DNA of 35,782 nucleotides from a virus (taxonomy: Duplodnaviria > Heunggongvirae > Uroviricota > Caudoviricetes): the IMG/VR virus record IMGVR_UViG_2651869830_000003; one strand, 5' to 3'. Under the pieces are notes generated by a model. That model had not been told where the DNA came from, made no database searches, and worked only from the letters and a program-made list of their open reading frames with translations. Shown in pieces: positions 21,359 to 28,736 of this stretch. Every line of letters starts with the position of its first letter. The stretch's first letter is position 1. A program made the translations under genes and the position numbers.

Positions 21359-23404
21359 ATGAGCACAAAATTCAGAACCGTTATCACCACTGCCGGTGCA
21401 GCAAAGCTGGCAGCGGCAACCGCACCGGGAGGGCGGAAGGTCAACATTACCACGATGGCCGTCGGGGATGGCGGTGGTAAATTGCCTGTCCCGGATGCCG
21501 GACAGACCGGACTTATCCATGAAGTCTGGCGACATGCGCTGAACAAAATCAGCCAGGACAAACGAAACAGTAATTATATTATCGCAGAGCTGGTTATTCC
21601 GCCGGAGGTGGGCGGTTTCTGGATGCGTGAGCTTGGCCTGTACGATGATGCGGGAACATTAATTGCCGTGGCGAACATGGCCGAAAGTTATAAGCCAGCT
21701 CTCGCCGAAGGCTCAGGGCGTTCGCAGACCTGTCGCATGGTCATCATCGTCAGCAGTGTGGCCTCAGTGGAGCTGACCATTGACACCACAACAGTGATGG
21801 CGACGCAGGATTACGTTGATGACAAAATTGCAGAGCACGAACAGTCACGACGTCACCCGGACGCCTCGCTGACCGCCAAAGGTTTTACTCAGTTAAGCAG
21901 TGCGACCAACAGCACGTCTGAAACACTGGCCGCAACGCCGAAAGCGGTAAAGGCCGCGTATGACCTTGCTAACGGGAAATATACTGCGCAGGATGCCACC
22001 ACAGCGCGAAAAGGTCTTGTCCAGCTCAGTAGTGCCACCAACAGCACGTCTGAAACGCTCGCTGCAACACCAAAAGCCGTTAAGACGGTAATGGATGAAA
22101 CGAACAAGAAAGCGCCATTAAACAGCCCTGCACTGACCGGAACGCCAACGACGCCAACTGCGCGACAGGGAACGAATAATACTCAGATCGCAAACACGGC
22201 TTTCGTTATGGCCGCGATTGCCGCCCTTGTAGACTCGTCGCCTGACGCACTGAATACGCTGAACGAGCTGGCGGCGGCGCTGGGCAATGACCCGAATTTT
22301 GCTACCACCATGACTAATGCGCTTGCGGGTAAGCAACCGAAAGATGCTACCCTGACGGCGCTGGCGGGGCTTGCTACTGCGGCAGACAGGTTTCCGTATT
22401 TTACGGGGAATGATGTTGCCAGCCTGGCAACCCTGACAAAAGTCGGGCGGGATATTCTGGCTAAATCGACCGTTGCCGCCGTTATCGAATATCTCGGTTT
22501 ACAGGAAACGGTAAACCGAGCCGGGAACGCCGTGCAAAAAAATGGCGATACCTTGTCCGGCGGGCTTACTTTTGAAAACGACTCAATCCTTGCCTGGATT
22601 CGAAATACTGACTGGGCAAAGATTGGATTTAAAAATGATGCCGACAGCGATACTGATTCATATATGTGGTTTGAAACAGGTGACAACGGCAATGAATATT
22701 TCAAATGGAGAAGTCGCCAGAGCACCACAACAAAAGACCTGATGAATCTTAAATGGGATGCTCTGTATGTTCTTGTTAAAGCCCTTTTCAGCAGTGAAGT
22801 AAAAATATCTACAGTCAATGCGCTGAGGATATTTAATTCATCTTTTGGTGCTATTTTTCGCCGTTCTGAAGAAAACCTGTATATCATTCCTACACGAGAA
22901 AATGAGGGTGAAAATGGAGATATTGGGCCATTAAGGCCATTCGGCATCAACTTAAGAACAGGAGTTGTGTCTGTTGGTAATGGTGCCAGGATTGATGGCG
23001 GGCTGGCACTTGGCACGAATAACGCGTTGGGTGGGAACTCTATTGTTCTTGGTGATAACGACACCGGATTTAAACAAAATGGCGATGGTAATCTGGATGT
23101 TTATGCTAATAACGTCCATGTTATGCGCTTTGTTTCCGGAAGCATTCAAAGTAATAAGACCATAAATATTACGGGGCGTGTTAATCCCTCGGATTACGGT
23201 AACTTTGATTCCCGCTATGTGAGAGATATCAGACTTGGCACACGTGTTGTCCAGACCATGCAGAAAGGGGTGATGTATGAGAAAGCAGGGCACGTAATTA
23301 CCGGGCTTGGTATTGTCGGTGAAGTCGATGGTGATGACCCCGCAGTATTCAGGCCAATACAAAAATACATCAATGGCACATGGTATAACGTCGCACAGGT
23401 GTAA
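21359..23404 (+). CDS. H: Tail fiber protein H, 681 aa.
   Basis: Position matches P2 H. Conserved N-terminal region, then repeated QLSSATNSTSETLAATPKAVK motifs and a lower-GC C-terminal part. Confidence 0.85.
   Translation: MSTKFRTVITTAGAAKLAAATAPGGRKVNITTMAVGDGGGKLPVPDAGQTGLIHEVWRHALNKISQDKRNSNYIIAELVIPPEVGGFWMRELGLYDDAGTLIAVANMAESYKPALAEGSGRSQTCRMVIIVSSVASVELTIDTTTVMATQDYVDDKIAEHEQSRRHPDASLTAKGFTQLSSATNSTSETLAATPKAVKAAYDLANGKYTAQDATTARKGLVQLSSATNSTSETLAATPKAVKTVMDETNKKAPLNSPALTGTPTTPTARQGTNNTQIANTAFVMAAIAALVDSSPDALNTLNELAAALGNDPNFATTMTNALAGKQPKDATLTALAGLATAADRFPYFTGNDVASLATLTKVGRDILAKSTVAAVIEYLGLQETVNRAGNAVQKNGDTLSGGLTFENDSILAWIRNTDWAKIGFKNDADSDTDSYMWFETGDNGNEYFKWRSRQSTTTKDLMNLKWDALYVLVKALFSSEVKISTVNALRIFNSSFGAIFRRSEENLYIIPTRENEGENGDIGPLRPFGINLRTGVVSVGNGARIDGGLALGTNNALGGNSIVLGDNDTGFKQNGDGNLDVYANNVHVMRFVSGSIQSNKTINITGRVNPSDYGNFDSRYVRDIRLGTRVVQTMQKGVMYEKAGHVITGLGIVGEVDGDDPAVFRPIQKYINGTWYNVAQV
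21890..22084 (+). repeat. Two copies of a 63-nt imperfect direct repeat (21890-21952 and 22022-22084) encoding the tail-fiber motif QLSSATNSTSETLAATPKAVK.
   Basis: Repeat seen at both nucleotide and protein level within H. Confidence 0.7.
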
Positions 23405-23407
23405 TTT

Positions 23408-23935
23408 ATGCAGCATTTAAAAAATATTACTGCGGGTAATCCAAAAACTGTTGCCCAATATCAACTGACAAAAAATTTTGATGTTATCTGGTTATGGTCC
23501 GAAGAGGGAAAAAACTGGTATGAGGAAGTAAGTAATTTTCAGGAAGACACGATAAAGATTGTTTACGACGAGAATAATATAATTGTCGGCATCACCAGAG
23601 ATGCTTCAACGCTTAACCCTGAAGGTTTCAACGTTGTCGAGGTTCCTGATATTACCTCCAACCGACGTGCTGATGACTCAGGTAAATGGATGTTTAAGGA
23701 TGGTGCCGTGATTAAGCGGATTTATACGGCAGATGAACAGGAGCAACAGGCAGAATCACAAAAGGCAGCTTTACTTTCCGAAGCTGAATCCGTGATTTTG
23801 CCGCTGGAACGCGCTGTCAGGCTGAATATGGCGACGGATGAGGAACGCAGCCGACTGGAAGCATGGGAACGCTACAGCGTTCTGGTCAGTCGTGTGGATC
23901 CTGCAAATCCCGAATGGCCGGAAATGCCGCAATAA
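23408..23935 (+). CDS. G: Tail fiber assembly chaperone G, 175 aa.
   Basis: Length and position match P2 G, immediately after H. Confidence 0.8.
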
Positions 23936-24218
23936 GTTGTATGATCTCTGGTGTGAGCTTACATATCTATAGCACAGAGTAAAGCCTAATCTGACAGTCC
24001 GCTATGTGCCAGGAGCGGAAGTAGCAAACCAGATTTTACTGAAGCTTGAGCAGAGATACCACCAACTGATGCCTATCAGTAATGGGGCTCTTGATGATTC
24101 AAATAAAAAAGATTAAATTGATTAAGATTATTCTTACTTGATTAATTGTTTTGCGCATGGGCTTGGAAAACCATGAATCAGATCTTCACTAGATAAAACA
24201 ACGAACTATGGAGGAAGC

Positions 24219-25310
24219 GTGGGCGGCGAAACTAAGAATATTGATGAGATTGCAGGTATCATTTCCAGTAGAATTTTTGATGAGTTAGGCTGGAAAACCC
24301 AAAATACAACGGATATAAGTTGGGACTGTTGTTTGAGATCTCATCTAAACGCTAAACAACTTTTATCTGAAAACCCAAAAAAAACTCATCCTACGGATGT
24401 AGTCTTCAAATATAAAGATCCTTATTCAGATATAACTCAGTATATACAAACAGATTTAAAATCTTATTGTGCCAGCACGCTTGACGGTACAAAATCAATA
24501 TTGAACACTGTACGAAGTTTATCACAACAGGTAGCTTGCGCGCCAAGAAGTCCTGAGTGGCGGCGTCTATTTGTTGACAGCACAAATGAGAAATATCAAG
24601 TTAACGGCCTACTTTTTATATATAATCATGACAATAAATATGACTCTGATTTAATTGAGAAATTAAATGGAGCAGCCACAGCAAGTTATGATTTTCCAGA
24701 GAACTCTGTGATTGCCGTTTTTGACCCAACTATGATCAGATTTTTACTAGATGTTACAGAACACATCGAGACTAGAAGAGGAATTACTGACAAAGTAACA
24801 CAAGAAACAAATATGTTATGGCAAAAAATTCCTGAGATAGAGAACTGTACATATTTTTACCCTGACAAACATAATAAAATAGCAACGAAAGGGAAAATCC
24901 TTCCAGCCACAATTGAAATGATAACATCTGGGATGATTTTTTACTCATATGAACACGAATATATTAGAAATGATGGTGGCGATAGAATAAGAAATAAAAT
25001 ATTGAATATATTCTGGAAGGAAGAGGTTGATTCCAGTAACCACTTTATATTTCTTTTAGAGTATATATTTAACTATCAATTACTCAATCAATTTGACAAA
25101 ATATTTGTTATAACTCCGTTCTCATCACACTCAAGCATTCATTTGCAATCCGCCATTAATGATTACATAGGAATATATTCTTTCACTCAATCTCATATAG
25201 AAACGTTAAAGGAAAAAATAGTATCCATTCCTTTTGTTAATCAAAAGCTATCTATATTTGAGTACCAGGTTGCCAGCAAGCAGGTGAATAGAAAATGTCA
25301 CTTTTCATAA
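24219..25310 (+). CDS. Hypothetical protein, 363 aa, first gene of an AT-rich three-gene accessory operon; GTG start. No recognisable domain; a weak PD-(D/E)xK-like pattern sits near the N-terminus.
   Basis: Strong SD ggagga 5-10 nt upstream of GTG at 24219. AT-rich. In the P2 Z/fun slot between G and FI. Confidence 0.7.
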   Translation: MGGETKNIDEIAGIISSRIFDELGWKTQNTTDISWDCCLRSHLNAKQLLSENPKKTHPTDVVFKYKDPYSDITQYIQTDLKSYCASTLDGTKSILNTVRSLSQQVACAPRSPEWRRLFVDSTNEKYQVNGLLFIYNHDNKYDSDLIEKLNGAATASYDFPENSVIAVFDPTMIRFLLDVTEHIETRRGITDKVTQETNMLWQKIPEIENCTYFYPDKHNKIATKGKILPATIEMITSGMIFYSYEHEYIRNDGGDRIRNKILNIFWKEEVDSSNHFIFLLEYIFNYQLLNQFDKIFVITPFSSHSSIHLQSAINDYIGIYSFTQSHIETLKEKIVSIPFVNQKLSIFEYQVASKQVNRKCHFS

Positions 25311-25320
25311 GGAGTATGAC

Positions 25321-26568
25321 ATGAATAAATATCAAGCTACGTTGTTTTCAAACGAAAGTGACATTTATACCGCCCTCCACTCTAACAGTGCAAAAATCAC
25401 AGATGTTACATTAAGGAAAATCGCCTTCAATAGAGGGATAATTTTCCCATCTAACTTATCAAAAGAGGTATTGATAGAAAAATTATCAGACCTGCCATTT
25501 TCATATAATCACATCAGAGAAGTACAAGATAAACTGGCAACCAAACCCAGCCAAGACGTCTTCTCAGTAAAACGTATATATGAAGAATTTGATATAGAGA
25601 AACTCTATGACGTTGTAAACAAAGTGAAAGAAAATAGACCCAAGTTGCTAGGGCATGAGAAAATTGATCATTACTCAGGCTTGCAAACCTATCATATATC
25701 TATTGATTATACTGAGTTTGATTTTAGAAGGGGTAAGTTTCAGCAGAAAAAATTGTACAGTGGGAGTATAGTTTTTATAGTAAAAAAAGGATATGTTTCA
25801 GTAAGATATAACTATACGCCACGCATTTCAGAAATTCTCAAGCAAATAATTGATACATATTCATCAACAGTTTGTAACAACATAGTTGTCAACGAAATAG
25901 ATTTATCAAGTATCGTCGATACAGATCTTAGGAATATTTTTGCTGTTCATCTTTATGATTTTGATGGAAATTATAAAAAAACAGGACTTGAATATGCTGG
26001 TCTTGAAAAGGTTAGAGTAAGCAGAATAAAAACATCTCTGGATATTAATGGAGATAATCTCGAAGGAAATAATAACGAAGAAACACAAGAGTTATTAAAC
26101 AAGATTTCACCTTCTACAGATAACGAAAATGATGATGACATTAATAATCAGGAAATGGCATCTGACGATGATGAAAACCTAACTTTTAACATTAACAATG
26201 CCGCGTATGATGGCCTATCATTAGTGAACGCACCTCAAATTAAGGAACTGTGCCGTGATGGGTTTTATCGAAGCTTAATTCGATGGAAGTCATTTTCCTC
26301 AGTAGTTAAGAATCATACTATAACTTTTGAACTTAGTTTCGATGATAAATATCTTGGGAAAAATATAAAATTCAGAGCGTTATACAAAGAAAGCAACTCT
26401 GCATCCGCAGAGAGAGAAAAACTCAGTGACGCAGACTTTGATCAAGTCATGAAACAATTAGAAGATAAAATATTTTTGATTAATGACTTTATTATCGAAG
26501 AGCATACCAAGCGATACCCAGTAACGAAAGCTATGTCTTGCGAGACTTTGAATCAGGAGGCTGGATGA
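25321..26568 (+). CDS. Hypothetical protein, 415 aa, second gene of the accessory operon; contains a roughly 45-aa acidic low-complexity linker.
   Basis: aaggag SD 7 nt upstream of ATG at 25321. Same strand and composition as the flanking cassette genes. Confidence 0.7.
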   Translation: MNKYQATLFSNESDIYTALHSNSAKITDVTLRKIAFNRGIIFPSNLSKEVLIEKLSDLPFSYNHIREVQDKLATKPSQDVFSVKRIYEEFDIEKLYDVVNKVKENRPKLLGHEKIDHYSGLQTYHISIDYTEFDFRRGKFQQKKLYSGSIVFIVKKGYVSVRYNYTPRISEILKQIIDTYSSTVCNNIVVNEIDLSSIVDTDLRNIFAVHLYDFDGNYKKTGLEYAGLEKVRVSRIKTSLDINGDNLEGNNNEETQELLNKISPSTDNENDDDINNQEMASDDDENLTFNINNAAYDGLSLVNAPQIKELCRDGFYRSLIRWKSFSSVVKNHTITFELSFDDKYLGKNIKFRALYKESNSASAEREKLSDADFDQVMKQLEDKIFLINDFIIEEHTKRYPVTKAMSCETLNQEAG

Positions 26569-27221
26569 TGATAAAGGTAAAAATTTATAAAGCAGAAAAG
26601 GATATAACTAAAAGTGAGTTATTACATAAAGTAAATGACAACCTCTATGATGAAGATAAAGGATATGGTTTTCAAATCATTAATAACTCTGAAGTGCTTA
26701 AACTAAGATTTACCATGAGAAGCATTAGCAAGCAAAGCTTAGAATATGCTAATGGCGAGCGTTCAGAGGTTGAAATAGCAACTTACTTAAATGTGGACTT
26801 TGGCGTCAGACAAGGGAAAAAAATCATACTATATGCCACTAATCCTCCATTAAGTATGAAAGTGCCTTATACTATGGTGCAAAAACTATTTGGTGAAGAT
26901 AGTGGCTTGAGACCAGTAGAATTTGATCTGAGAAAAATTGTAAATGGTCTTTCTGAGGGCTTTGACATCAAGATAAAATCCATGTCTCTATCTAATATCT
27001 CTGTTGATCCTTTTACTTTAGCAAAGACAAAAATAGTAAGCTCAAAGAATCTCCAAGAAATTTATCAGAATAAATACATGAATAGTTCGGCCGTTTTTGA
27101 TTCCGTACATTTCTTCGTTAACGGAATTGAAACGGAATTATCTAGGACGGGTAGATTCCGTGTGAGAGAGAGTCAGCTTCCAACACTTTTATCCATCTTA
27201 GAAACTCTCAGAATTTTGTGA
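26565..27221 (+). CDS. Hypothetical protein, 218 aa, third gene of the accessory operon.
   Basis: ATGA stop/start overlap with the upstream gene (translational coupling). ggagg SD. The track start at 26538 is trimmed to the ATG at 26565. Confidence 0.65.
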   Translation: MMIKVKIYKAEKDITKSELLHKVNDNLYDEDKGYGFQIINNSEVLKLRFTMRSISKQSLEYANGERSEVEIATYLNVDFGVRQGKKIILYATNPPLSMKVPYTMVQKLFGEDSGLRPVEFDLRKIVNGLSEGFDIKIKSMSLSNISVDPFTLAKTKIVSSKNLQEIYQNKYMNSSAVFDSVHFFVNGIETELSRTGRFRVRESQLPTLLSILETLRIL

Positions 27222-27238
27222 AATATATAAGGAACTCA

Positions 27239-27265
27239 GGCCTACTTCGTCAGTAGGCCCCTTTT
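27239..27265 (+). terminator. Rho-independent terminator of the three-gene accessory operon.
   Basis: Perfect 8-bp stem ggcctact/agtaggcc with loop tcgtc, followed by ccttttcc, 18 nt after the stop at 27221. Confidence 0.55.
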
Positions 27266-27426
27266 CCGGTTTGTACTTATCTAGTCATCGATTTGATCGT
27301 AATGATTCACACAGGATGCTGTTAGCAATGTCCGCTCTTCGCTCAAAGCAGACTGTCAGATTTGATAGCGTTTTGGCTATGTAAATTGTCAGTCGGGAAA
27401 TAAGTGAGTACAAATCATGACAGGCG

Positions 27427-27449
27427 GGCGGATTGTCCGCCTTTTCTTT
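27427..27449 (+). terminator. Second hairpin plus T-tract on the plus strand upstream of FI; possibly the ancestral G-operon terminator.
   Basis: ggcgga-ttg-tccgcc followed by ttttcttt. Confidence 0.35.
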
Positions 27450-27545: not shown

Positions 27546-28736
27546 ATGAGTGACTATCATCACGGCGTGCAGGTGCTGGAGATTAACGAGGGCACCCGCG
27601 TCATTTCCACTGTATCCACGGCCATTGTCGGCATGGTCTGCACGGCCAGCGATGCGGATGCGGAAACCTTCCCCCTCAATAAACCTGTGCTGATTACCAA
27701 TGTGCAGACCGCAATTGCAAAGGCCGGTAAAAAAGGCACGCTGGCGGCATCGTTGCAGGCCATCGCCGACCAGTCAAAACCAGTGACTGTTGTTGTGCGC
27801 GTGGAAGACGGCACCGGCGACGACGAGGAAACGAAACTCGCGCAGACCGTTTCCAATATCATCGGCACCACTGACGAAAACGGTCAGTACACCGGACTGA
27901 AAGCCCTGCTGGCGGCGGAGTCGGTAACCGGTGTTAAACCGCGTATTCTCGGTGTGCCGGGACTGGATACCAAAGAGGTGGCTGTTGCACTGGCATCCGT
28001 CTGTCAGAAGCTGCGCGCTTTCGGGTATATCAGCGCATGGGGCTGTAAGACCATTTCCGAGGTGAAAGCCTACCGCCAGAATTTCAGCCAGCGTGAGCTG
28101 ATGGTCATCTGGCCGGATTTCCTCGCATGGGATACGGTCACCAGTACCACCGCCACCGCGTATGCCACCGCCCGTGCGCTGGGTCTGCGCGCTAAAATCG
28201 ACCAGGAGCAGGGCTGGCATAAAACGCTGTCCAATGTCGGGGTGAACGGTGTTACCGGCATCAGCGCATCCGTCTTCTGGGATTTGCAGGAGTCCGGCAC
28301 CGATGCTGACCTGCTTAACGAGTCAGGCGTCACTACGCTGATTCGCCGCGACGGTTTCCGTTTCTGGGGTAACCGTACCTGCTCTGATGACCCGCTGTTC
28401 CTCTTTGAAAACTACACCCGCACCGCGCAGGTGCTGGCCGACACGATGGCTGAGGCGCACATGTGGGCGGTGGACAAGCCCATCACTGCAACGCTGATTC
28501 GCGACATCGTTGACGGCATCAATGCCAAATTCCGTGAGCTGAAAACAAACGGCTATATCGTGGATGCGACCTGCTGGTTCAGCGAAGAATCCAACGATGC
28601 GGAAACCCTTAAGGCCGGAAAACTGTATATCGACTACGACTATACCCCGGTGCCTCCTCTTGAAAACCTGACCCTGCGCCAGCGTATTACCGATAAATAT
28701 CTGGCAAATCTGGTCACCTCGGTTAACAGCAATTAA
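27546..28736 (+). CDS. FI: Contractile tail sheath protein, 396 aa.
   Basis: Length and position match P2 FI. Confidence 0.9.
   Translation: MSDYHHGVQVLEINEGTRVISTVSTAIVGMVCTASDADAETFPLNKPVLITNVQTAIAKAGKKGTLAASLQAIADQSKPVTVVVRVEDGTGDDEETKLAQTVSNIIGTTDENGQYTGLKALLAAESVTGVKPRILGVPGLDTKEVAVALASVCQKLRAFGYISAWGCKTISEVKAYRQNFSQRELMVIWPDFLAWDTVTSTTATAYATARALGLRAKIDQEQGWHKTLSNVGVNGVTGISASVFWDLQESGTDADLLNESGVTTLIRRDGFRFWGNRTCSDDPLFLFENYTRTAQVLADTMAEAHMWAVDKPITATLIRDIVDGINAKFRELKTNGYIVDATCWFSEESNDAETLKAGKLYIDYDYTPVPPLENLTLRQRITDKYLANLVTSVNSN

Follow-up and report, generated by a model that had tools for sequence, protein, structure and literature searches.

A short stretch near the N-terminus of Hp1, the first protein encoded by a 3HP cassette in a P2-like prophage, very probably forms the active-site hairpin of a nuclease domain of divergent PD-(D/E)xK type, and by analogy with the GAPS4 system Hp1 would act as a DNase effector. 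The stretch, HPTDVVFKYKDPYSDITQYIQTDLK, is the translation of positions 24387-24461 on the plus strand and covers residues 57-81 of the 363-aa protein; the minus strand opposite to it is interrupted by stop codons. Positions refer to the window, by which we mean the whole stretch of 35,782 nucleotides of viral DNA that was analysed (Table 1). A sequence-only reading of the window had pointed to a possible PD-(D/E)xK-like signature in this gene, a suggestion that is now supported by residue conservation, the predicted fold, the Foldseek neighbours, membership of PF26115 and the alignment with D49 of GAPS4a. Its numbering of D60, D79 and K81 is exact, since the GTG start and the translation fix the peptide at residues 57-81, and the distance of 19 residues that it gave between D60 and D79 is correct. 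Homologues of Hp1 begin with MGGET or MAET at the matching start position.

Table 1. Features of the 3HP cassette and of the predicted Hp1 active site (positions in the window)
Feature	Position	Strand	Remarks
Mobile low-GC cassette	23997..27354	+	GC 30-38%, compared with ~55% in the flanks
Ribosome-binding site GGAGG	24210..24214	+	4 nt upstream of the gene 1 GTG start
Gene 1, Hp1 of 3HP	24219..25310	+	363 aa; GAPS4a-family; N-terminal PD-(D/E)xK nuclease domain (predicted)
N-terminal nuclease domain, residues 1-190	24219..24788	+	Predicted alpha-beta-beta-beta-alpha-beta core (AlphaFold2, Foldseek, BFVD)
E4 codon	24228..24230	+	Conserved Glu in helix 1; candidate additional active-site acid, putative role
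Flagged stretch, residues 57-81	24387..24461	+	Strand 2, hairpin and strand 3; H57-P-x-D60 and D79-L-K81
D60 codon	24396..24398	+	Strand 2; predicted metal-binding Asp
D79-L-K81 codons	24453..24461	+	(D/E)xK element on strand 3
Gene 2, Hp2	25321..26568	+	415 aa; PADLOC Hp2, E 7.5e-11; phrog_6531
Gene 3, Hp3	26565..27221	+	218 aa; PADLOC Hp3, E 4.2e-11; phrog_5850; RefSeq start

Conservation and predicted fold of the Hp1 N-terminus

The weight of the flagged residues comes from their conservation and not from the bare pattern. A strict form of the pattern (D-hydrophobic-hydrophobic-x12-26-(D/E)xK) arose in 35% of 2000 shuffles of Hp1 and a loose form (D-x10-30-(D/E)xK) in 91%, and the strict form also occurs in 9 of the window's 50 long ORFs. 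The shuffle test thus agrees, for the pattern taken alone, with the original caveat that a motif of this length could occur by chance, and we accordingly dropped the motif as statistically meaningful by itself.

A word-indexed search recovered 71 homologues of Hp1 with identities down to 26%, in Enterobacterales, Vibrio, Aeromonas, Shewanella, Pseudomonas, Psychrobacter and one Kiritimatiellae MAG. When 1.84 billion representative proteins were searched exhaustively with a profile, 583 clusters were obtained at E<=0.001, with 266 at E<=1e-30 (clusters counted as 50%-identity representatives). In an alignment of 214 Hp1 sequences, extending down to ~26% identity, H57, D60 and K81 are each found in 214 of 214 sequences, D79 in 212 and P58 in 210, and E4 is present in all 203 non-gap rows, i.e. 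in every row that reaches the N-terminus. The family signature can be written THPxD(V)VF.Y.DPY......TDLKSY. The sequence-only reading had allowed that homologues might not keep the residues it singled out; D60 and K81 turn out to be invariant, and D79 is kept in all but two of the aligned sequences.

Family assignments point in the same direction. All 71 homologues, and distant ones as well, carry a precomputed match to the Pfam family PF26115 (PDDEXK_GAPS4), an assignment that rests on the precomputed table together with a separate hhalign comparison with GAPS4a. Some homologues bear the UniRef name "GAPS4 PD-(D/E)XK nuclease domain-containing protein", and in one recent genome RefSeq gives WP_001625141.1, which is exactly Hp1, the product name "PD-(D/E)XK nuclease domain-containing protein". 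Hp1 also matches phrog_7059 (E 3.8e-91). Scans of all three cassette proteins with NCBIfam and with a Pfam-A release that lacks PF26115 returned nothing useful, and the Hp1 profile, run against the sequences of the PDB, gave matches at chance level, with no nuclease among them.

AlphaFold2 modelled full-length Hp1 from a 40-sequence alignment with a mean pLDDT of 83.6 and a pTM of 0.84, and residues 1-190 with a mean pLDDT of 82.1. The elements predicted for the N-terminal domain (helix 3-22, strands 26-36, 56-66 and 73-83, helix 91-118, strand 126-136) succeed one another as in the restriction-endonuclease fold (alpha-beta-beta-beta-alpha-beta), the very core whose absence would have spoken against the initial suggestion. 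The two segments earlier described as beta-like correspond to predicted strands 56-66 and 73-83, with D60 in the former, the second of the fold, and D79 and K81 in the latter, the third. According to these strand limits the turn lies at residues 67-72 and places residue 60 opposite residue 79 in an antiparallel hairpin, so that, inferred from the same limits, the side chains of D60, D79 and K81 would point to the same face, the arrangement known from canonical enzymes.

Structural comparison gave neighbours of a consistent kind. When the isolated N-terminal domain was compared with the PDB using Foldseek, the best match was HamA (8vx9_A, E 3.2e-4, prob 0.98), followed by FokI, EcoT38I, MspJI, EcoO109I, SduA, Cap4, BsmI, BamHI and Mus81. 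The named matches are mostly PD-(D/E)xK nucleases. However, these results should be read with some caution, since just one PDB match reached E<0.001 and the TM-scores are low (0.3-0.37); the structural evidence therefore consists of a consistent kind of neighbours and not of one close match. Named matches in BFVD were exonucleases, restriction endonucleases, PD-(D/E)XK proteins and herpesvirus UL24/UL76. Results for the full-length model were noisy, with no match at E<=0.001 and unrelated large proteins in the top ranks, and its local matches of higher probability were to Can2, Cap4, Avs3, HamA, MspJI and EndoMS. Trimming the Hp1 model to the N-terminal domain sharpened the Foldseek result.

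HamA of the Hachiman system (PDB 8vx9, 8vxy), to which the Hp1 domain is structurally closest, is a PD-(D/E)xK defence nuclease restrained by a partner protein. It differs from Hp1 in that the TM-score is ~0.3, the identity is 11% with no relation at the sequence level, and the partner of Hp1 is not a helicase. With FokI, EcoO109I, MspJI and BamHI, Hp1 shares the core topology and a D...(D/E)xK arrangement on strands 2 and 3, but it has neither a recognition domain nor a methyltransferase partner, and in addition displays the conserved H57, a Cys/His set and a C-terminal domain of ~150 residues.

The cassette as a divergent 3HP system

The sequence of the window is that of a P2-like prophage, with 100% identity to E. 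coli MDK9L1. Its cassette contains three tightly packed, co-oriented genes, the start of the third overlapping the stop of the second (ATGA), and it lies between a tail-fibre assembly gene (23408-23935) and a tail sheath gene (27546-28736). The same cassette is present in other E. coli genomes at 99.8-99.9% identity. Judged by gene order alone, its site appears to be the Z/fun locus of P2, which the literature names as a defence hotspot (PMC13586616). Promoter-like sites within the cassette showed no excess over shuffled sequences (11 compared with 14.9), and we claim no promoter. The cassette moves between prophages.

By its protein matches, the cassette is a 3HP (Rst_3HP) system, and a divergent member distinct from the one that has been tested. 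In gene order, the three proteins are recognised by the PADLOC models Hp1, Hp2 and Hp3 (E 5e-41, 7.5e-11 and 4.2e-11, respectively), and BLASTP against the validated proteins, which we took from the supplement of PMC9122126, gave E-values of 9e-49, 7e-12 and 6e-4. The validated system comes from E. coli E1114 and protects against P1, as reported by Rousset et al. 2022 (PMC9122126). Both systems consist of three co-oriented genes in the order Hp1-Hp2-Hp3 carried by a P2-like prophage, and the validated Hp1 likewise contains THPSD...TDLKSY. In contrast, the window's Hp1, Hp2 and Hp3 are only 33, 24 and 24% identical to their E1114 counterparts, they measure 363, 415 and 218 aa compared with 333, 359 and 231 aa (the first two being longer in the window), and the window's cassette sits between tail-fibre assembly and tail sheath genes. 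At this degree of identity to the validated 3HP, the anti-phage activity of the cassette is an extrapolation. The three-gene order is nonetheless kept in a homologue from Vibrio fluvialis at ~27% identity.

In the original paper the 3HP genes were described as being without a clear predicted domain, and among its HHpred results is a weak match of HP1 residues 4-94 to PF08878 with a probability of 83.4 (PMC9122126), which counts as a further likeness to HamA. A 2024 survey still placed Rst_3HP among the unclassifiable systems. Neither Hp2 nor Hp3 showed a relative in Pfam, NCBIfam or the PDB, where the profile search gave chance-level matches for both, and phrog_6531 and phrog_5850, to which they belong, are PHROGs without assigned function.

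Relationship to GAPS4

The GAPS4 system was described by Mahata and co-workers (bioRxiv 10.1101/2023.03.28.534373 and 10.1101/2025.09.07.674715) as an a2b2 complex that degrades host and phage DNA upon sensing DNA breaks (10.1101/2025.09.07.674715). GAPS4a carries a non-canonical HGxD...SxK motif; replacement of its aspartate in the two systems tested (D59A and D49A) abolished defence, and DNA degradation in vivo depends on the same residue (10.1101/2025.09.07.674715). We aligned six GAPS4a sequences taken from File S1 of the preprint and compared the resulting profile with that of Hp1. The two proteins are homologous over ~220 residues (hhalign probability 98.2, E 3.6e-14, 217 columns), with THPTD of Hp1 aligned to THGID and D60 aligned to D49 of E. 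coli GAPS4a.

Features common to the two proteins comprise the N-terminal E, W25, C37, H42, H57-x-x-D60, K81, C107 and an LF...N.D strand. The place of E4 in Hp1 is taken in GAPS4a by E3, which is invariant, and the near-invariant C37, H42, H57 and C107 are common to both families. The motifs themselves differ, HGxD...SxK in GAPS4a compared with HPxD...DxK in Hp1, which possesses the canonical second acid; both retain H, D and K, Hp1 has P where GAPS4a has G and D where it has S, and the match between the two lysines requires a one-residue indel. Since the hairpin of GAPS4a is one residue longer, both MAFFT and hhalign leave K81 and the K71 of GAPS4a in adjacent columns; when the indel is set in the hairpin turn, D79 falls on S69 and K81 on K71. 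The serine of GAPS4a at the position of D79 implies that the second acid is dispensable in the sister family.

The gene content of the two systems also differs, insofar as GAPS4 comprises either two genes or a single fused one, and 3HP contains a third. Three genes were found in the window and in distant relatives, and not the two-component architecture of GAPS4. Conversely, when GAPS4 loci were fetched and read downstream of GAPS4a, no conserved third gene and no counterpart of Hp3 was seen.

For the second component the relation is weak, and Hp2 is probably a remote homologue of GAPS4b to judge from profile comparisons. The GAPS4b proteins (367-397 aa) begin with ...LPSGD.LK.LL..S.I.K.....LR.RGVF, which resembles the N-terminus of Hp2. 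Comparison of the Hp2 family profile with GAPS4b gave hhalign probabilities of 19-31% (P 1.2e-3 to 5e-4, 137-180 columns), which rose to 56% when E1114 Hp2 was added (P 1.1e-4, 202 columns) and to 76.8 with the validated E1114 Hp2 alone (P 2.1e-5, 245 columns); every one of these alignments is collinear from the N-terminus. Hp3, considered as a split-off piece of GAPS4b or as a relative of Hp2, was rejected in both roles (probability <1%).

We tentatively suggest, at somewhat less than even confidence, that 3HP is a three-component offshoot of GAPS4, in which Hp1 would represent a DNase of the GAPS4a type whose canonical D-x-K was either retained or recovered, Hp2 a remote GAPS4b homologue and Hp3 an added subunit that alters the trigger or the restraint, with C37, H42, H57 and C107 forming a metal (possibly zinc) site beside the active site. 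The GAPS4 preprint does not mention 3HP, and in the portion of its homologue dataset covered by our search there was no 3HP-bearing E. coli accession and no HPTD motif. In the searchable literature we found no explicit statement that 3HP is a relative of GAPS4, and neither the metal site at C37/H42/H57/C107 nor the reading of 3HP as a three-component GAPS4 offshoot.

Proposed function, alternatives and significance

Because DNA degradation by GAPS4 depends on the equivalent aspartate, we infer that Hp1 is the effector nuclease of the cassette. The conservation of the residues, the predicted fold, the family to which Hp1 belongs and the identity of the system are shown by the analysis, and analogy with GAPS4 likewise guides what we propose for catalysis, for DNA as the substrate, for complex formation and for the trigger. 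Going by the fold topology, D60 on strand 2 would face D79 and K81 on strand 3 across the beta-hairpin, and the three residues, probably together with E4, could bind a divalent metal and activate water for cleavage of the phosphodiester bond. Hp1 might be kept inactive in a complex with Hp2, the probable GAPS4b-like scaffold, and with Hp3 as an extra subunit. Upon infection Hp1 would then degrade DNA, and either the infection would be aborted or the phage genome destroyed.

It could be argued that Hp1 has the PD-(D/E)xK fold but serves as a sensor or nucleic-acid-binding subunit, or as an RNase or other phosphodiesterase, and that killing is the task of Hp2 or Hp3. PD-(D/E)xK folds include RNases and inactive DNA-binding modules, GAPS4a tolerates a serine at the second acid, and Hp2 and Hp3 have no recognisable domains, hence an effector role is possible for them. 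We nevertheless regard this as unlikely, insofar as the full canonical E...D...DxK set is kept over 214 sequences, which argues for catalysis, the aspartate is needed for DNA degradation in vivo in the sister system, and no further enzymatic domain is detectable in the cassette. That the D...DxK spacing arose by mere coincidence in a protein of non-nuclease function is far less credible still, and we give it next to no weight: the frequency of the pattern in shuffled sequences and in the other long ORFs, and the low TM-scores, speak in its favour, but the exact residues are invariant down to ~26% identity, the fold topology is right with named structural neighbours that are mostly nucleases, and Hp1 is homologous to a protein whose equivalent aspartate has been mutagenised.

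The cassette as a whole could also be a prophage moron with a role other than defence, such as a toxin-antitoxin-like addiction module or a function directed at the DNA of its own prophage. Its mobility between prophages and the identity of only 24-33% to the validated 3HP would fit such a role. Against this, the models of 3HP recognise all three proteins in the expected order, the three-gene operon is kept in relatives of similar divergence, the cassette appears to lie in a P2 locus known from the literature as a defence hotspot (PMC13586616) and the validated homologue protects against P1 (PMC9122126), and we therefore hold a non-defence role to be quite improbable. All three alternatives are much less likely than the reading of Hp1 as a nuclease effector.

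The nuclease reading is right, yet it is already known: Pfam, UniRef and RefSeq annotate the domain and PADLOC recognises the system. Its practical value is modest, since Pfam and RefSeq already apply the label of a PD-(D/E)XK nuclease. Only the link between 3HP and GAPS4, the canonical DxK of Hp1, the extra subunit and the conserved Cys/His set are mildly new. Our results provide 3HP with a concrete predicted catalytic centre (E4, D60, D79 and K81), and they tie it to a system with a reported trigger, DNA breaks, and a reported effect, non-selective DNA degradation. Owing to this tie the experiments performed on GAPS4, i.e. aspartate mutants, sensitisation to nalidixic acid and qPCR of DNA loss, become transferable to 3HP.

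Transfer of the 3HP cassette between prophages

Among 5426 complete E. coli genomes, only 11 carried copies of the three-gene cassette, at 99.8-99.9% identity. In ten of these the shared part was confined to 23997-27354, and the P2 flanks were shared in MDK9L1 only, which matches the window exactly. Both other copies examined (loci L001 and L017) are housed in a Rac-type lambdoid prophage, not P2, as indicated by the surrounding marker genes recE, racC, kilR, sieB, ydaF and DUF1367. Since the carriers are of Rac type in some cases and P2 in another, and only this segment is common to them, the cassette has moved between unrelated prophage types.

A strong terminator-like hairpin about 200 nt 3' of Hp3, the third gene, belongs to the P2 backbone, because it falls outside the sequence that the Rac-borne copies have in common with the window. 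On the other side, GC content is 0.40-0.46 at 22400-23900, a stretch that takes in the tail-fibre assembly gene and the 3' portion of the tail-fibre gene before it, whereas the rest of the tail module is at about 0.55. Judged by base composition, this stretch fits an exchanged host-range segment adjoining the defence cassette.

A probably interrupted copy and a possibly mislabelled contig

In one genome, E. coli 30COLEC (NZ_CP070930.1), the cassette match comes as two segments instead of one, and the annotation beneath it includes an IS30-like ISApl1 transposase; together these observations suggest that the 3HP system of this strain has been knocked out by insertion. A further locus concerns the related two-gene system GAPS4. 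Contig URND01000141.1 (locus L005) is labelled uncultured Clostridiales; it encodes GAPS4a, the Hp1 homologue, at 99% identity to the E. coli protein, with an integrase immediately before it and a truncated GAPS4b reading frame of 278 aa. Despite the Clostridiales label, this contig resembles a P4-type satellite from Escherichia.

Conserved residues and C-terminal half of Hp1

Four potential metal ligands of Hp1 (C37, H42, H57 and C107) are near-invariant in the alignment of 214 family sequences, and all four are also retained in GAPS4a. Together these residues may make up a metal site of the Cys2His2 type adjoining the active site; alternatively, H57 could have a catalytic role. No description of this set was found in the literature searched.

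Coding positions of the conserved Hp1 residues and the hairpin downstream of the cassette
Feature	Position	Strand	Remarks
C37 codon	24327-24329		conserved in 212/214 of the Hp1 family
H42 codon	24342-24344		conserved in 208/214
H57 codon	24387-24389		conserved in 214/214
C107 codon	24537-24539		conserved in 214/214
Terminator-like hairpin	27422-27442	+	strong; 9 pairs, 6 G-C, then T-rich tail

Residues ~195-340 of Hp1 (24804-25240) make up a separate alpha/beta domain in the AlphaFold2 model (pLDDT about 90), and YPD and ATxEMxxS motifs are conserved within this C-terminal half in the alignment of homologues. According to hhalign, GAPS4a has a counterpart of it as far as about residue 247. Because GAPS4a docks onto GAPS4b in the AlphaFold3 model of GAPS4 (10.1101/2025.09.07.674715), this C-terminal domain may offer a docking surface to Hp2.

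Directly 5' of the H57 codon, and thus just ahead of the catalytic motif, lies a run of eight A at 24376-24383 (CCA AAA AAA ACT, encoding P-K-K-T). Such a homopolymer is slippage-prone, and its presence may merely reflect low GC content.
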